Positions 22,290-62,194 of a stretch of 64,000 nt of DNA are shown here, in pieces. How positions within the stretch are numbered: the stretch's first letter is position 1; each line of letters opens with the position of its first letter. Source of the stretch: Nitrospinota bacterium (GTDB lineage: Bacteria; Nitrospinota_A; UBA7883; JACRGQ01); the NCBI GenBank assembly GCA_029881495.1, contig JAOUMJ010000004.1, positions 28,476-92,475 on the forward strand. The letters are read 5' to 3'. The position numbers and the translations under genes are program-made. The notes below the pieces were generated by a model. That model searched no databases and was not told where the DNA came from. It saw only the letters and a list, made by a program, of their open reading frames with translations.

Positions 22290-22305
22290 GGGTGTGGGAG
22301 CGGGT

Positions 22306-23556
22306 ATGAAAGGCGTTGTCGGTCCGGCTGTTCGGTTGATGTGGGGCGTTCTATTTTTCATTGCTCTTCTCCACGTAGAATCGCATGCCGCGGAGATCTC
22401 CGGTTATATCGAAGGGGAGGCCAGGATATTTCCATCTTCTCCTCTTTACGACGGGCAGGAGAACCACTCCGGCTCAGTTGCGGTACTGTCGGAGTTTTAC
22501 CAGGAGCTCGGCCCAACCTCCGCAATGACTATCACGCCATTTGCCAGGTTGGATTCGGGTGATCCGAACAGGACCCATTTCGACCTGAGGGAGTTCTTCT
22601 TCCTTCTTCATGGGGAGTGGTGGGAGGTTCGCGCCGGTATCGACAAGGTCTTCTGGGGTGTGACGGAATCCGTGCACCTTGTCGACATAGTGAACCAGAC
22701 AGACATGCTTGAATCGTTTGACGGTGAGGAGAAGTTCGGTCAGCCGATGCTGAAACTCTCAATTGCGGGAGACGTCAAAGGGATCGATCTTTTCATTCTC
22801 CCCCTCTTCAGGGAGAGAAATTTTGCAGGCGAGGGGGGGCGTTTGCGCAGTGAAATACTTGTGGAAGGGGACGAGGCCGCTTATGAAAGCGTAAACAGGG
22901 AAAAGAGTGTCGATTTTGCGGTGCGTTACAGCTATACGTCGGGGGGATTCGATCTTGGCATTTCGTATTTCAAGGGGACCGGCAGGGAGCCGTCGCTTCG
23001 CCTTAAACGGAACGACATGGGATTTCCAGAGATAGACGCGAAAGGGAACATTCATCTCTTCCCGTATTATGAGCAGATCACGCAAGCGGGGGTCGATATG
23101 CTGCTGGTGCTCGATGCGTGGCTGCTGAAACTGGAGTCGATATACAGAACGGGGCAATCCGACAGGGACTGGATGAAAAACGATTTCGCATCTTCGGCGC
23201 TCGGCATTGAATACACGGTATACGGGGTCGCCGGTAGCGGCGCCGATGTAGGCATTCTCGGGGAGTGGGTTTACGACGACAGGGGTGATTCCGCCGTCTC
23301 CGCGCTCAACAACGACCTGATGGCGGGGCTGAGGTTTTCACTAAATGACGTTTCAGGCTCCACCGCGCTCCTTGGATATATCCATGATTATAAAAATAGC
23401 TCTTCTTTCCTCACGCTGGAGGGGAGCAGAAGGCTAAATGACCATCTGAAGCTGGAGCTGCAGGGATTTTACTTCCTCTTCTCCCCGGAGGATGATCCGT
23501 CATGGGTGATAAGGAGAGACTCATTCATGGAGGCTCGGCTCGTCTGGTATTTTTAG
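22306..23556 (+). CDS. putative outer membrane beta-barrel protein
   Basis: Signal peptide (LFFIALLHVESHAA), alternating beta-strand pattern, terminal aromatic (ends ...RLVWYF). Confidence 0.45.
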   Translation: MKGVVGPAVRLMWGVLFFIALLHVESHAAEISGYIEGEARIFPSSPLYDGQENHSGSVAVLSEFYQELGPTSAMTITPFARLDSGDPNRTHFDLREFFFLLHGEWWEVRAGIDKVFWGVTESVHLVDIVNQTDMLESFDGEEKFGQPMLKLSIAGDVKGIDLFILPLFRERNFAGEGGRLRSEILVEGDEAAYESVNREKSVDFAVRYSYTSGGFDLGISYFKGTGREPSLRLKRNDMGFPEIDAKGNIHLFPYYEQITQAGVDMLLVLDAWLLKLESIYRTGQSDRDWMKNDFASSALGIEYTVYGVAGSGADVGILGEWVYDDRGDSAVSALNNDLMAGLRFSLNDVSGSTALLGYIHDYKNSSSFLTLEGSRRLNDHLKLELQGFYFLFSPEDDPSWVIRRDSFMEARLVWYF

Positions 23557-23962
23557 CTGCTGATAAAAATCGGCAGTAGCAAACAGCTCGGGAAAACTTT
23601 GAATCGATATAAAAGTACGCCGCTGTAACCCGGTTACCCGCTTTTTTCTTCTAAATGATTTATTTTTTTATCTATTTTTGTTTGTCCATCAACACTTTAT
23701 TAAATACAAAATGCAATAAGTAACGAAAAATAAGTATGTTTTATATTAAATATCATTCTCATTATTCGGTATATCAAGGAGGCCTGTATCTATAAATATA
23801 CATATATGAGCAAAGATGGTATATATTGCACATTTGTGCATGTCGGGATTATTGACGAGTTTTTACCAGTTATATCAACGGTTTCACTTTCCTTTAGTTG
23901 ATTTTAATCTCATTTCAAGTTAAATTAGATGGAATTATATTGAATTAGGGTGGTAATCGGCT
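23557..23962 (+). promoter_or_regulatory. AT-rich intergenic island upstream of the sigma-54 activator gene, containing palindrome TGCACATTTGTGCA
   Basis: Visibly AT-rich relative to flanking coding sequence; perfect 6-bp inverted repeat TGCACA-TT-TGTGCA near 23829-23842; multiple A/T tracts. Confidence 0.4.
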
Positions 23963-25240
23963 ATGGATAGCGTCAAAGAAATGAACGATGATTCATCAGG
24001 GAGTGATGAGATCTTCCCTGAACCGAAGATAGCTCTTTCCGGTGCACAGGTTTCCGGCGACGATTATGCGACATCCTCTACCGAGGATACGGAGGAGCCT
24101 TTGAATTCCGACTCCGATTCTTTTTCCGACTCCGCGCCCCTGCCCGGCGCTGTTCCGACTGCCGAGACGCAATCAACCCCTGTTTCTGAAGCAGCTGTTC
24201 CGGCAAATCCGTTCTCACGGATAATCGGCAACAGCCAGCAGCTGAACAAGGTTTTTGATTCTGTAAGGAAGATTGCCGACACCGATTCCACTGTGCTGAT
24301 ACTCGGCGAATCGGGAACCGGCAAGGAGCTTTTCGCCAGGGCGATACATGATCATTCGCCGAGAGCAAAAAACAATTTTGTTGTAGTGAACTGCGGCGCG
24401 ATACCGGAGGATCTCCTTGAAAGCGAGCTCTTCGGCCACGAGAAGGGATCGTTTACCGGCGCCATAAGGACGAGGCTCGGGAAATTCGAGCTTGCCAACC
24501 ACGGCACGATCTTCCTCGACGAGATAGGGGACATGAGCCCTTCCCTCCAGGTGAAGCTGTTAAGGATACTGCAACAGCAGGAGTTCGAGCGCGTCGGCGG
24601 AAACCAGGTTATCCGCACGTCGGTAAGGGTTCTTGCCGCCACGAACCGCGACCTCCAGAAGGCGATAGCCGAAAAGAAGTTCCGCGAGGACCTCTTTTAC
24701 CGCCTCAACGTAATCCCGCTCAACCTCCCTCCCCTGCGGGAGAGGAAGGACGATATCCCGAAACTTATTGAGCATTTCATGGGGCGCTTCAACAGGAGCA
24801 AGAACCGAAGCGTCAGCTCCGTCACCTCCGAAGCGATGAGCGCGCTGATAAAGTACGACTGGCCCGGCAATATAAGGGAGCTTGAGAATATCTGCGAGCG
24901 GATGGTTGTCATGACCGGCGAAGGGGAGATAGGGATGGATGATCTGCCGTTCCATATCGTCCCGGACAACGTGGAGAGCGAACAGCTCCTTCACGACATG
25001 CTCCTTGTAGGTAGCGAGGAGGTTGATCTCTTTGTTCCTCAGGACATCCCGCCCGGCCTGGTGGTAAAACTTCCGGATGAGGGGATAAGCCTCAAGGATG
25101 TTGTCGAGGAGTATGAAACGATGCTGATAATGCAGGCGCTCGAAAGGTCTAACTGGGTAAAGAACAAGGCGGCCACGCTCCTTGGACTAAACCGCACTAC
25201 CCTCGTCGAAAAACTGAAGAAAAAGGGTATCAACCGCTAG
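23963..25240 (+). CDS. sigma-54-dependent transcriptional activator (bEBP) with acidic low-complexity N-terminus
   Basis: AAA+ sigma-54 interaction domain ([35 protein letters not shown]), C-terminal Fis-type HTH ([21 protein letters not shown]); first ~95 aa are S/D/E-rich with no REC/GAF/PAS. Confidence 0.9.
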
Positions 25241-28609: not shown

Positions 28610-28815
28610 AAGGATAACACGCGATTTTCAGAATGTCTTTTTCGCGATGCATTTTAAATATGAGGGAAGGGTCATCCATGTTTTTTCCCGGTTTTTGGAA
28701 CATCGCCTCGCCAATCCCGGGGAGTTACCCAAACCTGCAATATGGTTTAAACTTGTTATACTTGTTTGCAACGGCTTATCCAGCCGGTATGGATCGAAAT
28801 AGGGAGCATTCGATT

Positions 28816-30957
28816 ATGGATGACAGGTTATTACGGAGATTGGCGGGCGTCAGGCCGGCATATATTGTTCTTGTGTCGGTGCTTGCCTCTGTCAGCCTCA
28901 CCCTGGTAATTGTCTCCATATGCAGTCTCTATTTTTACGGTCGCGTTACTTTCGAGTTTATCGCTACCGGGATCATCGCCTCTTTCTTTGTGGCTTTCTT
29001 GGTCGTCATGTTTCTGCAAAAAATTACGAATAGCATTATGGAAGTGAAGCTCCAGTCGGATTCCATGATCCAATCCCTGGAGAAAAATATCTCCAATATC
29101 ATCCAAAAGAGCAATGACGTCTTCTACAGGACCAACCTGAAGGGGGAGATAGTCTGGATATCTCAATCGGTTCAAAAGGTGATGGGATATTCTCCGGAAG
29201 AGTTGATCGGGAAGGATATTTCCAGTTTTTACGTAAATCCGGAAGAGCGATTGAGGCTCCAGGAGTTGCTGAGGGAGAATGGCGGATTCGTAAAGAATTT
29301 TGAGGCAAAACTCCGGAAGAAGGATGGGAGCGAGATATGGCTCTCAACGGACACCGGTTATTATTACGACGAACACGGGAGCATCGCCGGAGTTGAAGGG
29401 GAGACCAAGGATGTAACCGAAAAGAAGGAGATCGAAAACGCCCTGAGGCTCTCCGAGGAAAAGTACAGAACGCTTATCGAAAATATACAGGAGGGGATAT
29501 TCCTCCTTCAGGAAGGGAAGTTCGTCTACGTAAATGACAGGTTTGCCGAAATGACCGGCTACAAGGTAGCCGAGATAATTGGAAAGGAGTTTGCCCCTTT
29601 CGTGGCCCCGGAAGACAGGAACAAGGTTTTCGAGCGGTACAAAAGGAGGTTGCAGGGGGAAGACGTTCCAAAGGAGTACGAGTTCCGGCTCCTGCATAAG
29701 GATGGCAATGCGCGGGTGGTTGTGCATATGCTGGTGAGTCTCACCCAGTATCAGGGAAAACTGGCAACCACCGGTACGATCACCAATGTATCCGAAAAGC
29801 GGAAGATGGAAACTCTCTATCAAAAAGCCCAAAAACTCGAATCTGTGGGATTGCTGGCTGGCGGCATTGCCCATGATTTCAACAACCTCCTCACCTCGAT
29901 ACTGGGCGGTCTCTCACTGCTGAAGCTTACTATCGACAAGAGCGGAGATGACGAGGATTTGCAGATAGTCACGGAATCTATAAACGCCACTAAGCGCGCG
30001 AAAGACCTCGCAAGACAGCTCCTTTCATTTTCGAAGGGGTCGGAGCCTGTAAAGAAGCTGTTAAGCCTCAAAGATCTCCTGATGGACTGCGTGTCGTTTT
30101 CTCTTCGGGGTTCGTTATCGAATTATTCGTTCGATATTGTCGACGACCTCTGGAACGTGGAGGCCGATGAAGGACAGCTTAACCAGGTATTCAATAATTT
30201 GATAATCAACGCGGAACAGTCAATGCCGGACGGCGGCGTGATAGATGTCTGCGCCTACAATATAAACATATCGTCGCACAGCGGGATACCTCTTCCACCA
30301 GGGAAGTATGTTCAGATTACGGTTGAGGATGCCGGCCACGGAATACCGGATGAATATCTCGACAAGATATTCGATCCCTACTTCACCAGTAAACAGAAGG
30401 GGAGCGGGCTCGGCCTTGCGTCAGCATATTCGATAATCAGGAACCACGGCGGATTTATCGATGTTGAATCCGATCTCGGAAAGGGGAGCAGGTTCCATGT
30501 ATTCGTTCCGGCCAGCGATTTGGCGATAAATGAATACGCCTCTTCTCCAGCGCTTGTGAAAGGCCATGGGAGGGTTCTTGTTATGGATGATGAGGATGTC
30601 GTAAGGAATGTTCTCGGCAGGATGTTAAAGAGGCTGGGGTACGAGACGGAGTATGCCGTCGACGGCGAAGAGGCCGTCAGCATTTACAGGCAAAACCTCG
30701 AAAACGGCACCCGGTTTAAGGCGATAATTACCGATCTCACGATACCCGGCGGGATGGGGGGAGAAAAGGTCTTGAAAATCCTCAAGGAGGCCGACCCTGA
30801 GATCAAGGCGATAGCAACAAGCGGCTACGCGCTTGATCCCATAATGTCGGATTATCCCAAATACGGATTTGCCGGAATTCTTCAAAAACCTTTTGAAATG
30901 GAAAACCTAAGCGTGGTACTGGAAAAGGTGACGGCGGAGAACGGCGGGAAATCATAA
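28816..30957 (+). CDS. hybrid sensor histidine kinase (membrane N-terminus, two PAS, HisKA, HATPase_c, receiver)
   Basis: H-box GIAHDFNNLLTSILGG; N/G boxes (NNLIINAEQSM, DAGHGIPDEYLDKIF, GSGLGLASAYS); C-terminal REC (VLVMDDE ... ITDLTIPGGMGG). ATG 28816 chosen by RBS; ORF track start is 28633. Confidence 0.85.
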   Translation: MDDRLLRRLAGVRPAYIVLVSVLASVSLTLVIVSICSLYFYGRVTFEFIATGIIASFFVAFLVVMFLQKITNSIMEVKLQSDSMIQSLEKNISNIIQKSNDVFYRTNLKGEIVWISQSVQKVMGYSPEELIGKDISSFYVNPEERLRLQELLRENGGFVKNFEAKLRKKDGSEIWLSTDTGYYYDEHGSIAGVEGETKDVTEKKEIENALRLSEEKYRTLIENIQEGIFLLQEGKFVYVNDRFAEMTGYKVAEIIGKEFAPFVAPEDRNKVFERYKRRLQGEDVPKEYEFRLLHKDGNARVVVHMLVSLTQYQGKLATTGTITNVSEKRKMETLYQKAQKLESVGLLAGGIAHDFNNLLTSILGGLSLLKLTIDKSGDDEDLQIVTESINATKRAKDLARQLLSFSKGSEPVKKLLSLKDLLMDCVSFSLRGSLSNYSFDIVDDLWNVEADEGQLNQVFNNLIINAEQSMPDGGVIDVCAYNINISSHSGIPLPPGKYVQITVEDAGHGIPDEYLDKIFDPYFTSKQKGSGLGLASAYSIIRNHGGFIDVESDLGKGSRFHVFVPASDLAINEYASSPALVKGHGRVLVMDDEDVVRNVLGRMLKRLGYETEYAVDGEEAVSIYRQNLENGTRFKAIITDLTIPGGMGGEKVLKILKEADPEIKAIATSGYALDPIMSDYPKYGFAGILQKPFEMENLSVVLEKVTAENGGKS

Positions 30958-39025: not shown

Positions 39026-41296
39026 ATGCCGAAAACCAGGGACTTCACGATAAAGCAGAAGCTGGGGCTCATCATCGGGGTGACCACTGTTGTGGCGCTC
39101 CTTCTCGCTTCGGTGTCGTTCATCCTCTACCAGAGATACATGCTAAGGCAGACCATAGTGCAGGATCTCTCTTCGCTAGCGGAGATCACGGGAAACAACA
39201 ACGCCGCTTCACTCGCGTTCATGGACACCGGTTCGGCAAGGGATACGCTCGGTGGCCTGAGCGCCAGGCCGTCTATCGAAGGGGCCGCTATATACTCCGC
39301 TGACGGCGAGCTGTTCGTGAAATATATAAAGATGAACGCGGATTTTGACGTTCCTGAATACCCAGGCGAGGACGGGCAGAGCTTTTCAGGCGGGAGGCTT
39401 ATCCTTGCAAGGGGGATAATATTCGACGGTGAGAGGATAGGTACCTTTTTCCTGGCGGCAAACATGGACGAGCTGAACGCACTGACAATAAAAAGTTCGA
39501 TGACAGTTCTGCTGGTAATGTTTATTTCGTTGATAGCCTCAATGATCGTCTCTTCAAGGCTTCAGGGGCTTATTTCAAATCCGGTAGCGGCCCTTTCAAG
39601 CCTCGCCATATCGGTTTCTGAGAGCAAGGATTATTCCGTCCGCGCAAAAAGCGACAGCCGCGACGAATTCGGCGACCTCATGAACGCGTTTAACGAGATG
39701 CTTGAACAGATCCAGTCAAGGGATCAAAAGCTGAGGGAACATGGCAAAGAACTGGAAAAGGAAGTTGAGGAGCGTACAAGAGAGTTGAACATCGCCAATA
39801 CGAATCTAAACGAAGAACTATTGGACCGCAGAAAGGCGGAACAGGCGCTTGCCCGCACGCTAAGCGAACTGGAAACGATAATGAACGCAAATCCCGACAT
39901 CCTTTACGTCGTAAACATGGAAGGGAAACTGATCAAATGGAACAACGGACTGGCAATGCTCACTGGGCTGGGGCCGGACAAGCTGATGCTACGGCCGATA
40001 ACCGAATTCATTCATGAAGATGACCGGGATATCGTCATGAGGAGGGTAAAGGATGTATTCCAAAATGGGGAGGCAACGGTCGAAGCGAGATTCTTCGACA
40101 GGAACGGCGACCTTTTCCCTTACTACTGCAACGGAATTGTTCTCAGGAACGAAAAGGGGGAAGTGACCGGCTTTACCGGAACGGGGCGCGACATCTCCAT
40201 ACTGAAGGAGACAGAGCTAGAACTGCGAAGGGCAAAGGATAGCGCCGAGGAGGCCACAAGGCTAAAGGACAAGTTCGTATCGCTAGTTTCCCACGACCTC
40301 AAAGGGCCTCTTGGAAGTCTTTTGGGATTTCTGGAGCTTATCAAAAGGGACTCTGCGAATGGCATCTCTGCGGAATCGGGAAAGTACCTAAGCATCGCCC
40401 TAGATTCCGGCGAGAAAATGCTCACATTGATAGATGATCTCCTCAACATCAGCAGGCTCAAGACCGGAAACATCATGCCGCACTACACATTCAACGATCT
40501 TCACATTATCATGTTGAAGATTCTTTCCGGCCTCGCCTATCCCGCGTCCCTGAAGGGTGTGACAATACAGAACGACGTAAGACCCGGCATCCGCGTATAT
40601 GCCGATAAACAGCTTCTGCAGGAGGTTTTGCAAAACCTTATTTCAAATGCGGTGAAGTTCTGCAATCAAGGGGACACTATCAGGATATTCCTTCCGTCAG
40701 GAAACGGGGGGCAAATTTCCGTTGCCGACACCGGGCAGGGGATCGCCCCCGAAAGGATAGGTAAACTCTTTAATTACGAAGAGAAGACCTCCACTATAGG
40801 CACCGCAGGTGAGACCGGAACGGGGCTGGGGCTCCCGCTTTCAATGGACATCATAAAGGCGCACAAGGGGAACATAGCCATAAGTTCCGAAGTTGGCATA
40901 GGGAGCACTTTCACCGTTTCGCTCCCGATAGTGAAGCCTGTCATTCTCCTTGTGGAAGACGACATAAACCTGATGGAACTCGTAAAGTTCATGCTTGAAG
41001 GGCTGGATGTGTTTATTATGGAAGCGAGGGACGGACAGGAAGCACTCGATATTCTCAGCGAGAAAACCCCTCATCTCATTCTCTCCGACATAATGATGCC
41101 GCGAGTGGATGGTATGGAACTGCTCGAAAAGGTGAGAAATACCGAACTCCTTAAAGATATCCCTTTTATAGTAATGACAACTTCCAGGGAGCCTGAAGTA
41201 TCGGAGAGAGCTTTTCAGCTTGGAGCGGACGACTTCCTGGTAAAACCGGTCACGCAAAACGAAATGATCCCGCGTATCAAGAGATTTATTTTATAG
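39026..41296 (+). CDS. hybrid sensor histidine kinase (periplasmic sensor, HAMP, PAS, HisKA, HATPase_c, receiver)
   Basis: Two TM helices flanking a ~130-aa periplasmic domain; H-box SLVSHDLKGPL; G boxes DTGQGIAPE, GTGLGLPLSMDI; REC ILLVEDD ... ILSDIMMPRVDG. Confidence 0.85.
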   Translation: MPKTRDFTIKQKLGLIIGVTTVVALLLASVSFILYQRYMLRQTIVQDLSSLAEITGNNNAASLAFMDTGSARDTLGGLSARPSIEGAAIYSADGELFVKYIKMNADFDVPEYPGEDGQSFSGGRLILARGIIFDGERIGTFFLAANMDELNALTIKSSMTVLLVMFISLIASMIVSSRLQGLISNPVAALSSLAISVSESKDYSVRAKSDSRDEFGDLMNAFNEMLEQIQSRDQKLREHGKELEKEVEERTRELNIANTNLNEELLDRRKAEQALARTLSELETIMNANPDILYVVNMEGKLIKWNNGLAMLTGLGPDKLMLRPITEFIHEDDRDIVMRRVKDVFQNGEATVEARFFDRNGDLFPYYCNGIVLRNEKGEVTGFTGTGRDISILKETELELRRAKDSAEEATRLKDKFVSLVSHDLKGPLGSLLGFLELIKRDSANGISAESGKYLSIALDSGEKMLTLIDDLLNISRLKTGNIMPHYTFNDLHIIMLKILSGLAYPASLKGVTIQNDVRPGIRVYADKQLLQEVLQNLISNAVKFCNQGDTIRIFLPSGNGGQISVADTGQGIAPERIGKLFNYEEKTSTIGTAGETGTGLGLPLSMDIIKAHKGNIAISSEVGIGSTFTVSLPIVKPVILLVEDDINLMELVKFMLEGLDVFIMEARDGQEALDILSEKTPHLILSDIMMPRVDGMELLEKVRNTELLKDIPFIVMTTSREPEVSERAFQLGADDFLVKPVTQNEMIPRIKRFIL

Positions 41297-41714: not shown

Positions 41715-44700
41715 ATGACCTCAAAGCCGCAATCAGGGATAGCAAAGCTGATTTTTTCCCCTTGGGGAGCCGTATTGGTATGGAGTGTCTTTATCGCCAT
41801 CTCCCTTCTGTGGAACATCAGCCACCATAGGAAAGACACCCTGGAAATGGCGGTCAAGGAAGCAACCATCCACTTCAACAAGGATCAGGCTTTCAGGTAC
41901 TGGGTTACTTCGCATGGCGGCGTTTACGTCCCTGTGGATGAAAGAACACCTCCAAATCCTCTTCTTTCGCATGTGCCGGAAAGGGATATCGAAACCAAAT
42001 CGGGAAAAAAACTTACCCTGATGAATCCCGCTTACGCCTTGCGCCAGTTGATGAACGATTACAGCGACAAATACGGGATAAAAGGGCGCATTACGAGTCT
42101 GAAACTCCTTAACCCGGCAAACGCTCCCGACGAGTGGGAAAAGAAAGCGCTAAAGTCCTTCGAGAATGGCGCGGCTGAAGCGGTTGAATTCACCAAGATC
42201 GACGGCGTTCCGTTTCTGAGGTTCATGCGTCCGATGATCACCGAAGAGGGATGTCTTAAATGTCACGCGCATCAAGGGTACAAGGTCGGCGATGTGAGGG
42301 GTGGGGTCGGGGTAATCCTTCCGGTACAGCCGTATATGGAAATAGAGAAAAGCGAAGTTGCATCAATAGCCATCTCGCACAACCTGTTCTGGATAATCGG
42401 GCTTTTTGCCATCGGGTTCGTATCGAGGCTGAATAAAAAGAGGATACAGGAAAAGAGCGAGGCCGAACAGGCAGTTTTCCTTTTCAGGACCCTTCTTGAC
42501 CGCTCCAGCGACGCCATCACCGTTGTTGATCCCGACAACGGAAGGTTCCTCGATTTCAATGAAAAGTTCTGCGCTAATCTCGGTTACGGACGCCATGAGA
42601 TCATGGGGAAGAGCATTATTGATATCGATTCAACCATCAAGGATATCTACGAGTGGAACAAGCGAATTGAAGAGCTGGAGAAACATGAAGAGCTTGTTTT
42701 TGAGAGTGTGCATGTCCGGAAGGATGGCTACAAATTTCCGGTAGAGGTCAGCGTAAAGCTTGTTCGGGAAAAAGGGAAGAGGTTTATCATTGGAGTCACC
42801 AGGGATATTACGGAGAGAAAGCGCGCGGAAGAGGCGCTCTTGCGGAGCGAGGAAAAATACAGGCTGTTGGTGGAGAGCGGTCTCCTGATCGCGTGGGAAG
42901 CGAAGTTCCCTTCGCGGCAGTTCACCTTTGTAAGCTCGCATGCCGGAAAGCTCACAGGCTACAGCGAAAAGGAGTGGTGCAAGCAGGATTTCTGGGTGAA
43001 CCATCTTTATACCGAAGACAGGGAGAAGGCAATAAAACAGAGCGGGGAGCTTGTCAAAAAAGGTGAGGGTCACACACTCGAATATCGGATGATCGCGAAG
43101 GACGGCAAGGTTATCTGGTTCAAGGATATGGTGAGCGTCATAAAGGATTCGGCCTCGGCGCCTGTCGGCCTGCGCGGGTTCCTTACCGATATAACAGAAA
43201 GAAAAAACATGGAAGATCTTGCCAAGAGCAGGGGGGAATCCCTCGCCAGAGCGCAGGAGATAGCGCACATAGGGAGCTGGAGCTGGGATGTTCAAACAGG
43301 CCATCTCTACTGGTCCGACGAAAATTTCAGGCTCTTCGGATTCTCTCCCCAGGAATTCGAGCCTACGTATGAAAAGTTCCTTGAAATTTTACATCCATCC
43401 GATAGAGAGAGCGTGATCCAGGCCGTCAATCTCACGCTGGAGGGGGGCGGGAATTACGATATTGAACATAGGATCGTCCGTCCCGACGGCACGGTAAGGC
43501 TGATACATGGGCAGGGGAGGGTTGAATACGGGAGGGACGGAACGCCTGCAAGGATGTATGGCACGGGACACGATATCACCGATCAGCGGAAATCCGAGGA
43601 GACCATGCGTCTGCAGAGCGAGATGATGGCGAACATGGGGGAGGGGGTTCTGCTGATAAAGGCCGACAACATGAAAATAGTTCACGCGAATTCCAGACTT
43701 GAGAAGATGTTCGGCTATGGTGAGGGGGAGCTTTTGGACAAAGAGGTCGCCATACTTAACGCGCCCACGGAACGCGATCCGAAGGAGACCGCGAGGGGAA
43801 TAGTCACTCTGCTGCAGGAAAAAGGTTTCTGGCAGGGGGAGGTTCACAATATCAAAAAGGACGGTTCCACGTTCTGGTGTTTTGCGTCAATCGCGGGGTT
43901 CGACCACCAGGAGTACGGGAAGGTCTGGATATCGGTGCATGCCGACATAACCGAAAACAAACGCGCAGAGGAAGAAAAACTTCTTTTCAGGAGGCTTGTC
44001 AACAGATCTAACGACATGATCCTTCTGGTCGACCCGGAGAGCGCGCTCATTCTCGATATAAACGACAAGGGGTGCGAGCACCTCGGATATGACCGTGAAG
44101 AGTTGATGAAGATGCGGGTAATAGATTTCGACGCAACCGTAAGTGAAGTTGAAGCGTGGCAGGCACACACTGCGGAGCTGGAAGCTAAGGATTCACTCCT
44201 CTTTGAAAGCGTTCATATAAGAAAAGACGGCGCCCGGATACCGGTAGAGATAAACGTAAAGCTGGTTTCGGAGAGCGGCAGAAGCTTTATAATCGGCGTG
44301 GTTCGGGATATATCCGACAGAAAGCGCGCCGAAGAAGAGCTGAGAAACAGCCAGAAGATACTCGCCCGCGCCCAGAAGATAGCAAATATTGGAAACTGGA
44401 CATGGGATGTGCCGGATCAGAAGTTCAGCTGGTCGGATGAGCTCTATCACATACTCGGTTTAAGCGAGAAGAAGGGGAAGGCGGATTACCTGGCGATACT
44501 GGAGACGACCCACCCGGAGGAGAGGGAAGGATTGAAGCGGGCAATTTTCGATGCGCTCGAAGAGAAAAAGCCATGGAACCTTGATCACAGAATAGTTCTT
44601 GAGGATGGGAATATTCGCGTAGTGCATCACCAGGGGGAGGTCACCTTGAACAGCGATGAGGAGGTCCTCCTCATCGAAGGGACGTTGCAGGATATTACCG

Positions 44701-46184
44701 AACGGAAGGAGGCCGAGCGCGCCCTGGAAAAGTCGGAGAGAAATATCAGGGCGATAGTCAAATCGGTCGGAGAAGGGATAGTCGTTGCCAATCGTGATTC
44801 GCGGGTGACATTCGTGAACGGAGAGCTCTGCGAAATTTTCGGCTGTTCCGAAGAGGAGATTATCGGACAGCCGCTCGAAATACTTATGCCGGAGCGTTTC
44901 AGGGAATCTCACAGGACGTCATTCAAGAGATATCTGGAAGGTGGGAAAGCGAGGGTCGTAGGGAAGAGGATCGAACTGGAAGGCCTTCGAAAGGATGGCT
45001 CGGAGTTCCCGCTTGAACTGAGGATCGAGGAGTCGGTATGGGATCACCAGGAGAAATTCTTCGTAGGCGCGATAAGGGATATTACTGAAAGCAGGCGAAT
45101 CTTCGAGGAGCTCCGAAAGGCGAAGGAAGAGGCTGAAGGGGCCACAAAACTGAAGGACAAGTTTGTGTCGATGGTCTCGCACGACCTCAAGGGGCCGCTT
45201 GGGAACATGATGGGATACCTGAAACTGCTGTTGAACGAGCAGGCCGAGCCGCTGGGGGAAGGGGCAAATGTCATCCTCGGGTCCGCGCTGAAATGCGGCG
45301 AGGGGATGATAAGCCTGATAGAAGAACTCCTGAATATCTCCCGGCTTAAGACCGGTAAGCTGGTTCCGCAGATGAGATTCCACGATCTGTATGTTGTCTC
45401 ATTGAGAGCGCTTTCGGGTCTCAGCTATCTCGCCCTCCAGAAAGGGATCGAAATTGTTAACGAAATAAAGCCCGGTGCGAGGGTCTTCGGAGACGAGCAG
45501 CTCCTTTCGGAGGTTGTCGCTAACGTCCTTTCTAACTCGATAAAATTCAGCGGGCGCGACAGCAGGATAACGATATCCCACTCCGCAGGAGAGAAGACAC
45601 TCCTTGCCATCAAGGATAACGGAGTGGGAATTCCGCCCGAAAAAATTGAATTCCTGTTTGATTATGAGGTGAAGACATCGACCGTCGGAACCGCCGGGGA
45701 GACCGGCACCGGCCTCGGTCTCCCGCTGGCAATGGATATCGTCAAGGCGCATGGGGGGGATATATCGGTGGATTCAAAGCCGGATGCCGGGAGCAGCTTC
45801 ACTATTGCGCTTCCGGTCGTGACGCCGAGGATCCTCGTGGCGGATGACGATGAAGGTGTACTCCATATCATCAGAACGATCCTTGCGGATGAGTCGGTGG
45901 AGATAATCGAAGCGCTCGACGGCAAGGAGGCGATGGAGCTCATCAGGGAGAAGGCTCCGCACTTTATAATCGCCGATTTCCACATGCCTGAGATCGACGG
46001 CCTAAAGCTCCTCGAAAGGGTGAAAAAAGAGAAGTCGATCAAGAACGCGGTATTCTTTATCATGACAAGCGACAAGGATACAGAGATAAAGGAGAGGGCG
46101 TTCCAGCTTGGGGCGGATGATTTTCTAAACAAACCGATATTGAAGGGGGACCTCCTCCCCAGGGTGAGGAGATATATAATTTAG
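41715..46184 (+). CDS. giant multi-PAS hybrid sensor histidine kinase with N-terminal CxxCH heme-type periplasmic domain
   Basis: 1489 aa; periplasmic N-domain with CLKCH motif (near 42252-42266); TM helix; at least five PAS/PAC modules; H-box SMVSHDLKGPL; HATPase_c; C-terminal REC. Confidence 0.85.
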   Translation: MTSKPQSGIAKLIFSPWGAVLVWSVFIAISLLWNISHHRKDTLEMAVKEATIHFNKDQAFRYWVTSHGGVYVPVDERTPPNPLLSHVPERDIETKSGKKLTLMNPAYALRQLMNDYSDKYGIKGRITSLKLLNPANAPDEWEKKALKSFENGAAEAVEFTKIDGVPFLRFMRPMITEEGCLKCHAHQGYKVGDVRGGVGVILPVQPYMEIEKSEVASIAISHNLFWIIGLFAIGFVSRLNKKRIQEKSEAEQAVFLFRTLLDRSSDAITVVDPDNGRFLDFNEKFCANLGYGRHEIMGKSIIDIDSTIKDIYEWNKRIEELEKHEELVFESVHVRKDGYKFPVEVSVKLVREKGKRFIIGVTRDITERKRAEEALLRSEEKYRLLVESGLLIAWEAKFPSRQFTFVSSHAGKLTGYSEKEWCKQDFWVNHLYTEDREKAIKQSGELVKKGEGHTLEYRMIAKDGKVIWFKDMVSVIKDSASAPVGLRGFLTDITERKNMEDLAKSRGESLARAQEIAHIGSWSWDVQTGHLYWSDENFRLFGFSPQEFEPTYEKFLEILHPSDRESVIQAVNLTLEGGGNYDIEHRIVRPDGTVRLIHGQGRVEYGRDGTPARMYGTGHDITDQRKSEETMRLQSEMMANMGEGVLLIKADNMKIVHANSRLEKMFGYGEGELLDKEVAILNAPTERDPKETARGIVTLLQEKGFWQGEVHNIKKDGSTFWCFASIAGFDHQEYGKVWISVHADITENKRAEEEKLLFRRLVNRSNDMILLVDPESALILDINDKGCEHLGYDREELMKMRVIDFDATVSEVEAWQAHTAELEAKDSLLFESVHIRKDGARIPVEINVKLVSESGRSFIIGVVRDISDRKRAEEELRNSQKILARAQKIANIGNWTWDVPDQKFSWSDELYHILGLSEKKGKADYLAILETTHPEEREGLKRAIFDALEEKKPWNLDHRIVLEDGNIRVVHHQGEVTLNSDEEVLLIEGTLQDITERKEAERALEKSERNIRAIVKSVGEGIVVANRDSRVTFVNGELCEIFGCSEEEIIGQPLEILMPERFRESHRTSFKRYLEGGKARVVGKRIELEGLRKDGSEFPLELRIEESVWDHQEKFFVGAIRDITESRRIFEELRKAKEEAEGATKLKDKFVSMVSHDLKGPLGNMMGYLKLLLNEQAEPLGEGANVILGSALKCGEGMISLIEELLNISRLKTGKLVPQMRFHDLYVVSLRALSGLSYLALQKGIEIVNEIKPGARVFGDEQLLSEVVANVLSNSIKFSGRDSRITISHSAGEKTLLAIKDNGVGIPPEKIEFLFDYEVKTSTVGTAGETGTGLGLPLAMDIVKAHGGDISVDSKPDAGSSFTIALPVVTPRILVADDDEGVLHIIRTILADESVEIIEALDGKEAMELIREKAPHFIIADFHMPEIDGLKLLERVKKEKSIKNAVFFIMTSDKDTEIKERAFQLGADDFLNKPILKGDLLPRVRRYII

Positions 46185-53723: not shown

Positions 53724-56168
53724 TTAGTTCGCGAAGAGCTCCTTGTGTTTCAGTTTCCATTCGATATTCTCCAGCGTTGCGCTTGCCACTCTGCCGTATA
53801 CGGAGAGCGGCTCCCCTTTTACCAGATCCTGTAGTTCCGCGGTTGCGTTTTCATCCTGGCTCAGCTTCAGCTGGCTGTCGCTCCTCACATACCGTACCCA
53901 GCTGTTCTGCTTGTCGTCCGGGTAGAGGTTTAGGACAGCTGTGGAATATTTCTGCACGGCGTCGAAATCGCGCGAGAGATAGGCTGATTCTATGAGCTGG
54001 TAGCGGCTCTCGACCACGAACCATTGGTCAGCCTGGCCAGGCATCTTTTCCTGTTTGTCGACCGCCATTTCGAAGTAGGTGATCGCGTTCTTGTATTCAT
54101 GCCGCGCCTTGTGCATCAGACCGAGATAGTAGGCGGTCTTTGAAACCCTTTCGAAATCCTGGTCAAGGGAGATCGCCCGCACATATGTCGTCATCGCCTC
54201 GCTGTTCTTCTTCTGAATCAGGTAGATATCCCCGAGTGTATGGACAGCCTCCGGGGCGTGGATTGAGCTGTCAAGCAGGTCCGCAAATGGGAGGAGCGTC
54301 TCTTCCGCTTCGTCGTATCTCTTAAGGAGGGCAAGTGTCGTTCCCTTTCCAAGCCGTATCCTCTCCTTGAGGAATCCCTGCCTGTCGAGCCTTTCGGCCT
54401 CTTCAAAACGCGCGAGCGCCTTGTCGTTCAATCCCATTTCGGAGTAGGCATCGGCAACCTTCACCATTACATTGGCGTCCTTGATATCCGTGAGGAACGG
54501 ATCAAAGTTGTCGTAATATGTCGCGAGTATGGTGTAGAACCCTTCCTGCTCATGCAGTCCGTGAATAAGCTCGTAGAGGTCGTTCTTGACGAGTTTCACA
54601 ACAGGTTCCTCCATCTGCGAGTCGGGGAAGTCCACCATCATCTTTTTCAATGCAAGTATCGATTCAATGTATCTCTTCTCCTGGTTGAGGAGTTTAGCTT
54701 TCTGGAACAGCGCGTTTCTTGACTGCGGCGTGTTCGGATGTTTTTTGATTATGTGGTTGTATGTATTGTAGGGTTCGAAGTAATCGGGATAGTCGTATAT
54801 GAGCGCGTCCTTTGGTTCGATAAGTTTTTTCGGCGCGTGACCGAGGGCGGCAAGCCTCAGCCTGGAGTCGAGGCCGTGCGGGAGTTCCGGTATTTTCCTT
54901 GCCTGAATCCCTAGAATTCTCATCGCTTCCATCGGCTGGTTTTTCGAAACATAAATGTCGGCGAGCCTGTTCACGGAGGCTCTCCCCTCGTCGCCGTTGG
55001 GGAAAAGGTTTATCAGCTTTACGTATAGATCCATAGCCTCGTCGAACTTGTTTAGCTGGTAATAGGTGTCGGCAAATCTGAAAAGTGTGTCGGGGTTCGA
55101 CATAACGAATGAGGGCCACTTAAGGTTCGAATCTTCGAACATTTTAAGGGCGGTCTTGTACCGTTTTTTGAAATAGAACGCCTCTGCGATCTTGAACCTT
55201 GCCTCACGCACTTCCTTTGCTTCGGGGTAGAGGAGAAGTATCTTTTCAAGCTCGTTGTATGCGAGAGCGTAATCTCCATTCTTCAGGTATATGTTTGCCC
55301 TGCCGGTGAGCGCACTGACGGTGAATTTCCCTTCAGGCTCCGATTCGATAATGCTTTTATATATGGCGAGAGCTTCAACGTCGAGCCCCTGATCTATATA
55401 GAGGTTCGCGATCCTCATTTTCGCCCTGTTCGCCGCCATAGAGCTGGGGAATGAGGCGGCGACAAGCCTGAACGCATTTATCGCTTCAGGGATCCTTTCA
55501 TTCTTTTTCTTTGCTATGCGGTAGACCGTTTCGGCAAGCATGAACATCGCTTTTTCCTGGTATTTGCTGTCGGGATACTGCCGAATGAATTCGGTAAGTT
55601 TGATTTCGGCGTCATCGAATTTGTTTTTCTGGAACGCCATCATACCCTCGGTATAGAGGTCCTTTCCGCCGAATTTCTGGATATCCTCAACCTTTGCGAG
55701 AAGCTCCTTTTCCTTTTTTTTCAATTCAGCTCTCTTCTCTTTCCCTTTGCTGTTTTTATCCACAGCAAGGAGTCCTGCCCTGTTTTTCAGTCTAATGGTC
55801 AGATCTTTTTTATCCGTTGAAAGGGAGTGGTATACGGATGTTTTAAAATCCTTCAGGTATATATTGGTGATCGTTTCGGCGTTGTCGGTAAGCATCACCG
55901 TTATCTTCTCAACCCTTTTATCGGCAAGCTTATCAGCGTCAAGCTGGGCTCCTATCCCGCTTTGTGGAGTGACTATGGTGATAACCTTGTCTTCCAGGTT
56001 AGGGTCAATGGAATACTCCATTGCCGGTTCGTCAAATGAAATTACCACGGAGGAGAACTGCTCCCCCTCGACCAGCGCGATCTTATTTATCTTGGTAAAG
56101 GAGGCCTCGGATATTCCCGCAAAGACAAGCATCAGAACCGATACTTTTACTGCAATAAATTTTCTCAT
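53724..56168 (-). CDS. secreted TPR-repeat protein (~815 aa)
   Basis: Signal peptide (MRKFIAVKVSVLMLVFAGISEA); many TPR-like repeats; AAAGGA RBS before ATG. ORF track start is 56225. Confidence 0.75.
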   Translation of the reverse strand: MRKFIAVKVSVLMLVFAGISEASFTKINKIALVEGEQFSSVVISFDEPAMEYSIDPNLEDKVITIVTPQSGIGAQLDADKLADKRVEKITVMLTDNAETITNIYLKDFKTSVYHSLSTDKKDLTIRLKNRAGLLAVDKNSKGKEKRAELKKKEKELLAKVEDIQKFGGKDLYTEGMMAFQKNKFDDAEIKLTEFIRQYPDSKYQEKAMFMLAETVYRIAKKKNERIPEAINAFRLVAASFPSSMAANRAKMRIANLYIDQGLDVEALAIYKSIIESEPEGKFTVSALTGRANIYLKNGDYALAYNELEKILLLYPEAKEVREARFKIAEAFYFKKRYKTALKMFEDSNLKWPSFVMSNPDTLFRFADTYYQLNKFDEAMDLYVKLINLFPNGDEGRASVNRLADIYVSKNQPMEAMRILGIQARKIPELPHGLDSRLRLAALGHAPKKLIEPKDALIYDYPDYFEPYNTYNHIIKKHPNTPQSRNALFQKAKLLNQEKRYIESILALKKMMVDFPDSQMEEPVVKLVKNDLYELIHGLHEQEGFYTILATYYDNFDPFLTDIKDANVMVKVADAYSEMGLNDKALARFEEAERLDRQGFLKERIRLGKGTTLALLKRYDEAEETLLPFADLLDSSIHAPEAVHTLGDIYLIQKKNSEAMTTYVRAISLDQDFERVSKTAYYLGLMHKARHEYKNAITYFEMAVDKQEKMPGQADQWFVVESRYQLIESAYLSRDFDAVQKYSTAVLNLYPDDKQNSWVRYVRSDSQLKLSQDENATAELQDLVKGEPLSVYGRVASATLENIEWKLKHKELFAN

Positions 56169-56486
56169 ATAAAATAATCCTTTCACTCTCACACCATAGG
56201 TAGCAAGATGCGGGCCAAAATGCAACCCGGATAGCCCGATACCTTTTATATTGCCACTTTCGTGTCTGACTAATATGTGAGCAATATAAGTGCCAACGAA
56301 TCAAAGGCTTTAAGTCCTGAATAATTGGCGGGTATTTGGGAAAAACCTGGTCTGGATATCTGTATTTTGTTTTGAAACCGGCAAAATTTGCCGGGTGTGG
56401 GGCGGAATTATCCTTTTATCATGATCTCTACGGAAAAAGGGACGGATTTCGTCTGATAAATACCTGTAACGGCAACCTGAGGCGGG

Positions 56487-58195: not shown

Positions 58196-59200
58196 CTACC
58201 CGATTTTACTTTCTTTCTCTATTCCATGTCTAGGAACAATGCTTGATATCCTGATAGCCTTGTTCCCCCTTACAACACCCGGATATCCCCGGAATTTTTC
58301 TACTTCGCTCACATAGATGGGGAGTTCGTCGGTAATATCCCGTTCCAGCTGTATTATCGACCCCTCTTTGAGATTTATGAAGTCCCTTGTCGACATTGTT
58401 GCTTCTCCCAGTTCCACCTTGATATCTACCTCGGCCTGCGCGAGCCTGTCGCTGAGCCTTGTTACCCATGTAAGGTCGACTTCCAGCTGATCGCTCTGGA
58501 AACCTGCTTTGAGTTTTCCGATGATAGGTTCGATGGTCGAGTATGGAAGACATATCGTCAACGTACCGGCAAACTGATCCATCTCCACTTCGTAAAGGAC
58601 AACCACAACAACGTCCGTGGGGGGGACGATGGCGGCGAACTGCGGATTCACCTCCGAGCGTACAAACTGCATCTGGCATGGGTGAACGGGTTGCCATGCT
58701 TTCTGGGTGTCTCTCAGCATCATGAGAACGACCTTTTTTATTACTCTCTGCTCGATGGCGGTGAAGTCGCGCCCCTCTATCTTCATCTTCGCTTCTCCCG
58801 AGCCGCCGAAGAATGAATCTACAAGCGCGAACGCCATTTTCGATTCGACTACCAGAAGTGCGAATCCTCTGAGGGGATTTATTCGGAAGATGTGAAGGGA
58901 TGCCGGCACCGGCAGGGATTTTATGAATTCGCCGAATTTCACCGTATCGGTTGAGACCGCGCTTACGTCGAGAACTTTCCTGAGGGCCGCCGAGAGGGAG
59001 TTTCTGAAGATACGCGAGAATCTCTGGTTGATGATGTCGAGAGTCGGCATCCTTCCCCTGATGATCCTCTCCTGGCTGGTAAGGTCGTAGGGAACCACGC
59101 CCGAATCGTCGCCGAGGTCATCGGCTTCGGTCTCTATCTCTCCGTCGCTTACGCCTCGTAATAGGGCGTCAACTTCGTCCTGAGAAAGTACCTGACTCAT
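58196..59200 (-). CDS. fliM: flagellar motor switch protein FliM
   Basis: N-terminal LSQDEVDALL CheY-binding motif; 334 aa. Confidence 0.9.
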   Translation of the reverse strand: MSQVLSQDEVDALLRGVSDGEIETEADDLGDDSGVVPYDLTSQERIIRGRMPTLDIINQRFSRIFRNSLSAALRKVLDVSAVSTDTVKFGEFIKSLPVPASLHIFRINPLRGFALLVVESKMAFALVDSFFGGSGEAKMKIEGRDFTAIEQRVIKKVVLMMLRDTQKAWQPVHPCQMQFVRSEVNPQFAAIVPPTDVVVVVLYEVEMDQFAGTLTICLPYSTIEPIIGKLKAGFQSDQLEVDLTWVTRLSDRLAQAEVDIKVELGEATMSTRDFINLKEGSIIQLERDITDELPIYVSEVEKFRGYPGVVRGNKAIRISSIVPRHGIEKESKIG

Positions 59201-59263
59201 ATTTTTTTGGCTCCCAATTCCACTTCCAGCTTTACCGGGGTTATCTTACCCCCAAGTTTGAAG

Positions 59264-59794
59264 CTATTGAATAACAAATTCAACAAAATATACGTTTTTT
59301 ACGACTCCGGTTTTAATCCTTGAATTTATTCTTGTTAGAATCTGCTCTTTGAGCTTGAATTTCCCTTCCACGGTCAATATTTCATCGACTGTCTTGGAAG
59401 AGAGTACCGTTATTACCATATCTTTCACCTGAGGCATCCGGTTTGCCAACTCCTCGGCCACCTTCGGATTGTTAAGCTCAACCTGCATGGTTACCTTCAG
59501 GAAGCGCTTCCCCTCATCCCCTGAAAGGTTGACGATGAAAGGCTCGAAAGCGACCATCTCGCCTAGTTTAAGGGGGTCGTACTGCTCCTGGGCTTCGACC
59601 GCCTGCTTTGACTGGCCTCCGGCCCCTTCCTGCACAGCCGCGTCCTTTTTAATGAAGTTGGAATAGATCAGGAATCCGCCTACGCCGAGAAGTGTCAGAA
59701 GGAGAACGATTATGACAATAAGCAGTACCTTGCTTTTACCTTTAGCCGGTTTTTCTCCACCAGACTCTTCATCCATATCTTCTTCAATAGCCAT
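59264..59794 (-). CDS. fliL: flagellar basal body-associated protein FliL
   Basis: 176 aa; single N-terminal TM helix and periplasmic domain; between motB and fliM. Confidence 0.75.
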   Translation of the reverse strand: MAIEEDMDEESGGEKPAKGKSKVLLIVIIVLLLTLLGVGGFLIYSNFIKKDAAVQEGAGGQSKQAVEAQEQYDPLKLGEMVAFEPFIVNLSGDEGKRFLKVTMQVELNNPKVAEELANRMPQVKDMVITVLSSKTVDEILTVEGKFKLKEQILTRINSRIKTGVVKNVYFVEFVIQ

Positions 59795-59811
59795 CAGGCA
59801 ACCTCCTAAAC

Positions 59812-60621
59812 TTAAAAAGAATCCTTTTCGAATTGTTTTATCACAATTTCAACCCGTCTGTTGTATTTCCTGTATTTATCGCTAATGTTCTTAACGCGAG
59901 GCTTGTTTGAAGAGTAGCCCTTCGCCTCCATCCTCATAGTATCTATTAAGCCGGTCGACATAAAGTAGTTATATACGGAGAGGGCCCTGGCGGAGGAAAT
60001 TTCCCAGTTGGAAGGGAAATTTTTCCCCTTTGCCGGAATATCGTCCGTGTGTCCCTCAATACTTATGTTGTTTTTCGAGATGGAGAGAATGCCGGCGATC
60101 CTGTTTAGAATCGGTTCAAGCGATTTTTTTATTTCGACGCTCCCCTTGTCGAACATCGCGTCATCCGGGATCGATAGTGCCACATCTTCGCCTCGCTTGA
60201 TCACCTCGACGCCGCTCCGCTCTATAGTGATTAAAAGCGTCTGAGCCTCTTTTTCGAGAAGTTTGCGGGATTCGGCTATCTCCTGGTCGTAGGTGATCAC
60301 CTCTTTCAATTCGTCCCAGCCTAGTGAATCGGGCTTGAAGTTCGGGACGACATCCATAGCGGAGGAGCGGGAGCTTTGCGTAAGGTTCAGTGCGCCAGCC
60401 GCGCCGGAGAAAACATTAAACATCTCCTTTATCACCTTGTCGTCCATTGATGACATTGAAATGAGCAGAACGAAAAAGGTGATAAGAAGCTGAAGGAGAT
60501 CGGAGAAGGTGACCATCCACGCATCCTTGTCAGGTCCTGCTTCTTCTGTTTCTTCATCCTTTTTTCCGCTTTGCCAGTCGGTGATTTTGGAGTGTTCGGT
60601 TCCCTTTTCCTGTTCGCCCAT
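59812..60621 (-). CDS. motB: flagellar motor stator protein MotB
   Basis: TM helix with conserved Asp (WMVTFSDLLQLLITFF); C-terminal OmpA-like peptidoglycan-binding domain (SNWEISSARALSV, NRRVEIVI). Confidence 0.85.
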   Translation of the reverse strand: MGEQEKGTEHSKITDWQSGKKDEETEEAGPDKDAWMVTFSDLLQLLITFFVLLISMSSMDDKVIKEMFNVFSGAAGALNLTQSSRSSAMDVVPNFKPDSLGWDELKEVITYDQEIAESRKLLEKEAQTLLITIERSGVEVIKRGEDVALSIPDDAMFDKGSVEIKKSLEPILNRIAGILSISKNNISIEGHTDDIPAKGKNFPSNWEISSARALSVYNYFMSTGLIDTMRMEAKGYSSNKPRVKNISDKYRKYNRRVEIVIKQFEKDSF

Positions 60622-62089: not shown

Positions 62090-62194
62090 GAAACCGCTTT
62101 TCTCCTCCTAAGCCAAATTAAGGTATACCTTCACGGAAATCTTATCGGAATTTTGTCTATTTAGCTGAATACTTATATTGCCCGTGCCGATTTG

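Follow-up and report, generated by a model that had tools for sequence, protein, structure and literature searches.

The activator gene and its conserved core

Sigma-54 activators are the bacterial counterpart of enhancer-dependent transcription. The 64,000-nucleotide stretch of Nitrospinota DNA analysed here, which we refer to as the window, encodes one such activator of 425 residues, in which the AAA+ core and the C-terminal helix-turn-helix (HTH) are preceded by a long acidic tail. Our analysis points to a sensor-less activator belonging to an uncharacterised family, on which the tail appears to be a lineage-specific and hypervariable addition. The gene and its parts are laid out as follows:

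23963-25240, forward strand: coding sequence of a 425-residue sigma-54-dependent enhancer-binding protein (open reading frame (ORF) with ATG start; Pfam)
23963-24220, forward strand: acidic disordered N-terminal tail, residues 1-86 (no Pfam match, model confidence, composition, substitution pattern)
24221-24979, forward strand: AAA+ sigma-54 interaction domain and lid, residues 87-339 (Pfam, alignment, AlphaFold2)
24980-25012, forward strand: QLxxDMLLVG helix, residues 340-350, between the AAA+ lid and the HTH (alignment, AlphaFold2)
25103-25222, forward strand: Fis-type HTH, residues 381-420 (HTH_8, 2.3e-14; AlphaFold2 predicted local distance difference test score (pLDDT) about 90)

Pfam places Sigma54_activat (PF00158) at residues 87-253 (9e-74, over the full length of PF00158) and AAA_lid_14 at residues 259-339. 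The Walker A motif GESGTGKE (residues 115-122, 24305-24328), the L1 loop GSFTGA (residues 162-167, 24446-24463), the Walker B motif FLDEIG (residues 184-189, 24512-24529) and the arginine-finger and sensor II segments, including NIRELEN, are all found, and every catalytic residue is invariant across our family alignment of 76 sequences (A2). In the AlphaFold2 model of the activator, which was built with a 76-sequence alignment, the AAA+ and HTH parts are confident. With the required AAA+ motifs and a C-terminal Fis-type HTH present, the protein is, as far as its sequence can tell, a bacterial enhancer-binding protein, and the initial annotation was right to describe the AAA+ core, with its GSFTGA loop, and the HTH as intact. 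Compared with the copy at L086, an independent metagenome contig encoding a 95% identical protein, the ratio of non-synonymous to synonymous substitution rates (dN/dS) of the core is 0.06. The core thus appears to be under strong purifying selection and the protein to be a functional enhancer-binding protein.

The acidic N-terminal tail

Residues 1-86 are rich in a few residue types (S16, D10, P9, A9, E8, T6), with a net charge of -15 and a hydrophobic fraction of 0.19. As controls we used 13,213 segments of 86 residues from the 38 other proteins encoded in the window; none of them matched or undercut this hydrophobic fraction and only 24 reached the acidity of the tail, so that the tail is a real compositional outlier. 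Residues 1-86 have no Pfam match, and a phmmer search with them against 1.84 billion representative proteins returned zero matches at E<=0.001. In the AlphaFold2 model, residues 1-80 have pLDDT values of 37-48 and are without secondary structure, and the N-terminus is not docked on the rest of the protein, with no intramolecular contact predicted. In the HTH part, ten K and R residues are set against six D and E residues.

We considered whether the tail might be a folded sensory domain that is too divergent for profile searches to recognise, an idea that draws on the general expectation that most such activators carry an N-terminal sensor. The low pLDDT and absence of secondary structure in residues 1-80, a hydrophobic fraction below that of all 13,213 control segments, the lack of homologs, and the fact that neither the length nor the sequence of the tail is kept among orthologs all argue against it, and we regard this explanation as extremely improbable. 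A cryptic domain in residues 1-86 was rejected on the negative results of Pfam, NCBIfam, AlphaFold2 and phmmer. We are therefore confident that the activator is sensor-less and its tail disordered. The initial annotation, which had described an S/D/E-rich, low-complexity N-terminus of ~95 residues lacking a receiver, GAF or PAS domain, and had named a cryptic folded sensory domain as the finding that would overturn this description, is borne out in its acidic disorder and in the absence of those domains, but the length is closer to 80-86 residues.

A sensor-less family in Nitrospinota

The activator reaches no curated NCBIfam equivalog cutoff (414 for NifA, where 529 is required, with PspF likewise below its cutoff). 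Its closest database proteins all come from Nitrospinae/Nitrospinota metagenome-assembled genomes (MAGs) and in none of them does Pfam find a domain before the AAA+ core; each of the ~55 closest relatives lacks a sensor. Next in order of similarity, at only 53-58% identity over the core, come receiver-containing activators of Nitrospirota and Deltaproteobacteria MAGs, and a scan of a genome collection for close orthologs returned only relatives of <=56% identity. The family has so far been seen almost only in Nitrospinota/Nitrospinae MAGs and is uncharacterised.

The sensor-less relatives fall into clades that differ in how much precedes the AAA+ core. Members of clade A, which includes the window, have N-terminal tails of 33-169 residues with net charges mostly from -12 to -38, whereas N-termini measure 16 residues in the sister clade A' (354-residue proteins), 20-28 residues in clade B and 10 residues in the minimal clade C. 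Since the close relatives are sensor-less and the sister clades have only 10-28 N-terminal residues, the ancestral state would be a PspF-like minimal activator. The initial annotation's proposal that a regulatory module had been replaced by the tail does not survive this comparison: the tail appears to be a hypervariable add-on specific to one sub-lineage and not to stand in for a receiver, GAF or PAS domain since lost. Most members of clade B (P0024-P0053) carry a disordered insert of ~70-130 residues past the DMLLVG helix, in the segment that joins lid and HTH, and disordered expansions are thus seen at two different positions in the family, the N-terminus in clade A and the lid-HTH segment in clade B.

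The signature of the family lies directly after the lid, where every clade A, A' and B member of alignment A2 carries [DE]xQLxxDMLLVG. Neither clade C nor the receiver-containing relatives have the motif. AlphaFold2 predicts a helix at residues 340-349 with a pLDDT of ~60-70, and we suggest that a docking site is more plausibly sought in this element than in the hypervariable tail.

Sensor-less sigma-54 activators are already known, and what is unusual here is the tail as a decoration on an uncharacterised family; a long acidic disordered N-terminal tail on a sensor-less sigma-54 activator is not described in the literature that we searched.

Translation start, promoter and leader

Whether the tail is translated in full depends on the start codon, and the sequence ahead of the gene bears on this and on its expression. 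The following features were identified:

23557-23962, forward strand: intergenic region upstream of the activator gene, 406 bp, AT-rich, 31% GC
23852-23857, forward strand: TTGACG box, aligned as TTGAC[GA] in all 7 orthologous upstream regions
23898-23926, forward strand: sigma-70-type promoter (TTGATT, 17-nt spacer, TAAATT), called from conservation
23923-23947, forward strand: three AATTA boxes at 10-nt spacing (AATTA-N5-AATTA-N5-AATTA), overlapping the -10 element and the 5' leader
23948-23953, forward strand: Shine-Dalgarno-like GGGTGG, 9 nt before the ATG at 23963 (sequence)
23981-23983, forward strand: Met7 ATG, the start codon common to all orthologs and a possible alternative start

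The promoter scores 8/12, under the threshold of our consensus scanner, and the call is made purely from conservation: TTGAnn-N17-TAAaTT/TAACTT is kept in the window and in L086, L083, L081, L084, L085 and L082. The AATTA triple box has no second match in the 64 kb, where 0.03 matches are expected, and recurs with at most one mismatch at the equivalent place in L086, L083, L085, L082 and L087; it is a candidate phased operator. The TTGACG box, ~45 nt upstream of the -35 element, could be the -35 element of a second promoter or a regulator site. RNA structure in the 5' leader and early coding region is not significant (fold z-score +0.84), and Rfam has no matches in the window.

The intergenic region 23557-23962 contains no ORF longer than 35 codons, no sigma-54 promoter (GG-N10-GC) and no small gene of the kind found beside several orthologs (below). 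We rejected sigma-54 autoregulation or a relic promoter upstream of the activator, there being no GG-N10-GC site in the region, and also the loss of an upstream domain by frameshift, given a stop codon 9 nt upstream and only ORFs of up to 35 codons in the 406 bp. A palindrome, TGCAC-ATTT-GTGCA (TGCAC-N4-GTGCA, 23827-23840, forward strand), lies ~12 nt upstream of the TTGACG box and resembles an NtrC-type half-site; it is imperfect in L086, was not found in more distant orthologs and is not at the place of the orthologs' sigma-54 promoters. Enumeration of inverted repeats across the orthologous intergenic regions gave no convincing shared palindromic enhancer site.

The in-frame TAA at 23954, 9 nt ahead of the ATG at 23963, limits how far the frame could extend upstream, and a G-rich Shine-Dalgarno sequence stands directly before the equivalent start in L083, L081, L084 and L085. 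The possibility that the start is misassigned, and that much of the tail is untranslated, would place the real start at Met7 (23981) or at a TTG at codon 47 (24101). The latter is preceded, at 5 nt, by GGAGG; GC content at third codon positions is 0.51 in codons 1-86 against 0.71 in the rest of the gene; annotations within one ortholog group lie ~100 N-terminal residues apart (P0005, 475 residues, versus P0011, 372 residues); and Met7 is the start codon that all orthologs have in common. On the other side, a promoter, short leader and Shine-Dalgarno sequence stand directly ahead of the ATG at 23963 and are conserved in five other loci, the frame is open and acidic for 80-169 codons in independent orthologs, with indels that are in frame, and even a start at codon 47 would leave ~40 disordered residues. 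We thus judge a misassigned start to be improbable, and the upstream stop, the Shine-Dalgarno sequence and the conserved promoter speak against the initial annotation's own caution that such a start might remove the region. On the sequence evidence, the true start would be Met1 or Met7, with no material difference, as Met7 removes only 6 residues.

The sequence around these two codons is conserved in a manner that does not follow the reading frame. GTCAAA-NNN-ATG, ending in the Met7 ATG of the window, is conserved in all 9 orthologous loci, and in 6 of the 9, window included, an in-frame start lies exactly six codons upstream of the shared ATG; L082, L087 and L089 have no in-frame start upstream of it. 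Because the nucleotides are kept where no start codon is in frame, the conservation of 'MDSVKEM' is at least partly at the nucleotide level, which weakens the case for it as a conserved protein motif. At L082 (9970-10003), E-S-V-K-F codons persist in frame before the annotated ATG without a start codon, and a run of six G lies just upstream, where seven would restore a GTG start; the assembly may be in error at this homopolymer, or the 6-codon extension may really have been lost.

Evolution of the tail

The copy at L086 carries the same tail minus 6 residues in frame, and between the two tails dN/dS is 0.37, with 6 non-synonymous and 5 synonymous changes in 80 codons. The missing 18-nt segment is flanked in the window by a direct repeat, which makes the indel a slippage signature:

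24107-24134, forward strand: direct repeat TCCGACTCCG at 24107 and 24125, flanking the 18-nt segment missing from L086

Within the tail of the ortholog at L083 (6301-6439), a 51-nt (17-residue) tandem repeat is present in 2.7 copies with 95% matches, which we take as direct evidence that tails grow by tandem duplication. Among relatives, N-terminal length ranges from 16 to 169 residues, with net charge mostly from -12 to -38. The tail thus has the appearance of low-complexity sequence that gains and loses length through slippage and tandem duplication under weak constraint, and selection may act on its bulk charge.

The changes relative to L086 are unevenly distributed. Residues 1-45 are identical in protein sequence, with a single synonymous change, and residues 46-80 are hypervariable, with 6 replacements and the indel. 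This pattern would fit a regulatory reading of the tail, in which an acidic spacer would present residues 1-45 as a short linear signal for docking or degradation. Residues 1-45 would then recruit a partner or protease, or else fold back on the AAA+ domain or HTH and keep the activator off until a signal arrives. In addition to the contrast between residues 1-45 and 46-80, the pattern M-[DNE]-[ST]-VKEM-[ND] recurs, with conservative D/N/E and S/T changes, at the N-terminus of orthologs that are only 59-76% identical, net negative charge is held across tails that cannot be aligned, and there is a precedent in RedR2-BtdS, where the N-terminal tail of an enhancer-binding protein takes part in partner sequestration (PMC10084136).

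Several observations count against this reading. GTCAAA-NNN-ATG is equally kept in L082, L087 and L089, outside any frame with a start, so the constraint on the VKEM codons is at the nucleotide level there. Over a block from about -100 to +135 (23863-24097), only 2 of ~235 positions differ between the window and L086, compared with a synonymous divergence of 0.18 elsewhere in the gene; conservation of the preceding 100 non-coding nt (98/99 identical) equals that of codons 1-45, and DNA further upstream is ~78% identical. This block may be a regulatory DNA or RNA region, or a recent recombination tract, and not necessarily a constrained peptide. Furthermore, the activator at L087 has an N-terminus of 16 residues on the same core and beside the same small neighbouring gene described below, and the N-terminus is not docked in the AlphaFold2 model. 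We therefore consider it unlikely that the tail is a genuine regulatory module of this kind.

A divergent Cys4 mini-gene in relatives

At five of the related loci, a sigma-54-type promoter and a small ORF encoding a four-cysteine (Cys4) protein lie divergently upstream of the activator gene, in the following positions:

L081, 9472-9718, reverse strand: promoter and Cys4 ORF
L082, 9417-9744, reverse strand: promoter and Cys4 ORF
L084, 8281-8505, reverse strand: promoter and Cys4 ORF
L085, 9446-9712, reverse strand: promoter and Cys4 ORF
L087, 310-773, reverse strand: promoter and Cys4 ORF

The encoded protein has 53-64 residues, four invariant cysteines (CxxC-x13-CxxxC) and a basic C-terminus. 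The sequence TGGCAY-N5-RTGCW occurs exactly once per locus, ahead of the Cys4 gene and on its strand, at four of these loci, and L084 has a near variant. The mini-gene persists across rearranged gene contexts. Its product has zero Pfam or NCBIfam matches and only 3 database matches, 2 of which are the query loci's own proteins and the named two of which are hypothetical proteins of Nitrospinae/Nitrospinota; the AlphaFold2 model (pLDDT 52) is too poor for a fold search. At L087 a second Cys-containing ORF of 69 residues lies between the promoter and the mini-gene, and at L081 a weak second Cys4 copy follows the mini-gene. The divergent unit is absent at L088 and L089, and tblastn detected no Cys4 mini-gene elsewhere in the window.

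In these relatives the Cys4 mini-protein is a natural candidate for both the target and the partner of the activator, one that the initial annotation had passed over. A bolder version would be a new PspF/PspA-like pair, in which the Cys4 protein is the target and also a metal- or redox-sensitive anti-activator, and in which, in the lineage of the window, where the adjacent mini-gene would have been lost, the expanded acidic tail would now fill its place, as an electrostatic autoinhibitor tethered to the activator or as a partner hub. We give this version little credence; if it were true, the protein would be a bacterial enhancer-binding protein with an acidic, activation-domain-like region. 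The Cys4 mini-gene and the linker helix in relatives are, in any case, a more promising lead than the window itself.

Gene neighbourhood, kinases and other sigma-54 sites

Upstream of the activator, in order, lie genes for an MMPL-type RND transporter, a LolA-like protein and an unannotated ORF of ~400-425 codons, and downstream lie genes for an FAA hydrolase, a methyltransferase and an acylphosphatase, followed by pyrF, tatC and a PAS hybrid kinase gene. This order is common to the window, L081, L084 and partly L083, and not to the more distant L082, L085, L087 and L089. Other features of the window that bear on the activator are:

22294-23556, forward strand: 420-residue ORF with a signal-peptide-like N-terminus and no Pfam or NCBIfam match
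28633-30957, 39026-41296 and 41715-46184: three hybrid kinases, each with HisKA, HATPase and a receiver domain
53724-56225, reverse strand: 833-residue protein with YbgF/CpoB-like TPR repeats, just downstream of rho
56281-56295, reverse strand: exact sigma-54 consensus TGGCACTTATATTGC (TGGCAC-N5-TTGC), the only exact match in the window
58196-62194, reverse strand: flagellar/motor cluster with motA, two motB/OmpA-like genes, fliL and fliM

In L081, L083 and L084, too, the 420-residue ORF comes immediately behind the genes for the MMPL/HAE3 transporter and the LolA-like protein, and its product probably serves that transporter system as an uncharacterised envelope component.

The three hybrid kinases with receiver domains are present as the initial annotation had listed them, and its suggestion that they might connect to the activator finds no support. 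For the kinase at 28633-30957, what close relatives show is synteny only (51% identity to the ortholog in L081), and the kinase adjoining the L085 ortholog shows generic kinase similarity only, at 27% identity; there is thus no conserved kinase-activator pairing. A functional link was rejected as local synteny only, and the activator has no receiver to accept a phosphoryl group. The window encodes nothing PspA-like and no other evident partner, in keeping with the earlier statement that no trans partner is evident nearby.

The sigma-54 consensus at 56281-56295 is intergenic, ~55 nt upstream of the TTG start of the 833-residue protein. Assignment of that protein as a PEP-CTERM PrsT was rejected in view of its YbgF/CpoB-like repeats. 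The sequence ahead of motA has a sigma-28-like CCGATAA box and lacks a sigma-54 site, and a link of the activator to the flagellar genes of the window was rejected on that ground.

Comparison with known systems

To our knowledge, control of sensor-less sigma-54 activators is known only for PspF and HrpR/HrpS. pspF lies back-to-back with the sigma-54-driven pspA, a target that also encodes the anti-activator. The activator described here resembles PspF in its progression from the AAA+ sigma-54 domain to the HTH with no sensor domain in cis (structure match, 4.6e-59) and, in relatives, in lying divergent from a sigma-54 promoter that drives a small gene, as pspF does beside pspA. The Cys4 mini-gene of those relatives is, however, analogous and unrelated to pspA. 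The activator differs in that the PspF equivalog cutoffs are not reached (TIGR02974, 300.7 versus 443.55; PRK11608, 249.7 versus 529), in having 86 acidic disordered residues where PspF has only a few before the AAA+ domain, and in that the divergent sigma-54 unit is missing at the window locus and no PspA-like gene is encoded in the window. W56 of PspF, the surface tryptophan that mediates PspA binding, would presumably align with Ala135 here.

PspA and HrpV are trans regulators of sensor-less activators (PMC7057263). The likeness to HrpR and HrpS is that these are sensor-less enhancer-binding proteins regulated in trans, by HrpV (PMC7057263). They differ as a co-dependent tandem pair, compared with a single gene with no adjoining paralog here, and there are no HrpV- or HrpG-like genes at the window locus, where the neighbours are the 420-residue ORF and the FAA hydrolase gene.

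The closest solved structure over the AAA+ domain, linker and HTH is that of FleQ (1.7e-97, 330 bits), and this raises the question of whether the AAA+ domain might sense a small molecule directly, as FleQ does with cyclic di-GMP (c-di-GMP), with no need for a sensor or partner. FleQ residues R144, R185, N186, R334 and E330 are taken here as the c-di-GMP contacts. Two of the five are kept (R185 = R126 and R334 = R275) and three differ (R144 = S85, N186 = A127 and E330 = H271). Flagellar genes are encoded in the window, but it is a sigma-28-like box and not a sigma-54 site that lies upstream of them. The activator also lacks the N-terminal FleQ domain, with no FleQ/REC-like Pfam match in residues 1-86, and no FleN-like gene lies nearby. 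Direct c-di-GMP sensing therefore seems to us very unlikely. NtrC-type activators are set apart by their receiver domain (PF00072), which the activator lacks and its receiver-containing relatives carry, and by the absence from receiver-containing activators of the QLxxDMLLVG linker helix.

A different kind of comparison is offered by proteins in which negatively charged, D/E-rich disordered regions can autoinhibit DNA-binding domains electrostatically (PMC10250230). The likeness is that an unstructured segment of strongly negative charge is combined with a DNA-binding domain that is basic; the difference is that the proteins treated there are mainly eukaryotic and that no intramolecular contact is predicted in the activator.

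Control of the activator

On balance we lean towards a functional sensor-less activator under PspF/HrpS-style control, in which the tail would do no more than modulate activity. The AAA+ core would, on the analogy of PspF and HrpR/HrpS, be intrinsically competent. Control in trans or at the level of expression is, on the same analogy, probable: output could be set by the activator's own expression level, from the conserved sigma-70 promoter and the leader with its AATTA triple box, or by a trans-acting factor, possibly one that docks on the QLxxDMLLVG helix. A specific regulatory role of the tail is doubtful. Most plausibly it only tunes activity, possibly by competing electrostatically with the basic HTH for DNA, or through residues 1-45, which are better conserved and might tether a partner; otherwise it might be a largely neutral expansion.

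Five observations sit uneasily with this account. The Cys4 gene and its sigma-54 promoter, which supply the PspF-like arrangement in relatives, are absent from the window and also from L086 and L083. No rpoN was seen in the window, so the dependence on sigma-54 is assigned by homology, and nothing connects the activator with the single exact sigma-54 consensus of the window. Residues 1-45 are more conserved than a purely neutral tail should be, an objection that is tempered by the equally strong conservation of the 100 nt of flanking non-coding DNA. Finally, tails that are not homologous are nevertheless consistently negative, a hint that selection acts on a bulk property.

The consequences differ according to the role of the tail. 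A regulatory tail would be the first case of a disordered control element on AAA+ activators of this class, and a non-regulatory one would amount to a lineage-specific low-complexity expansion of the ordinary sort, on a regulator of known type. In either case the locus belongs to a family of Nitrospinota sensor-less activators that is uncharacterised as a whole, in a phylum with marine nitrite oxidisers among its members, and the linker helix, the conserved promoter and leader with its phased AATTA element, and the Cys4 mini-gene in relatives provide handles on that family.

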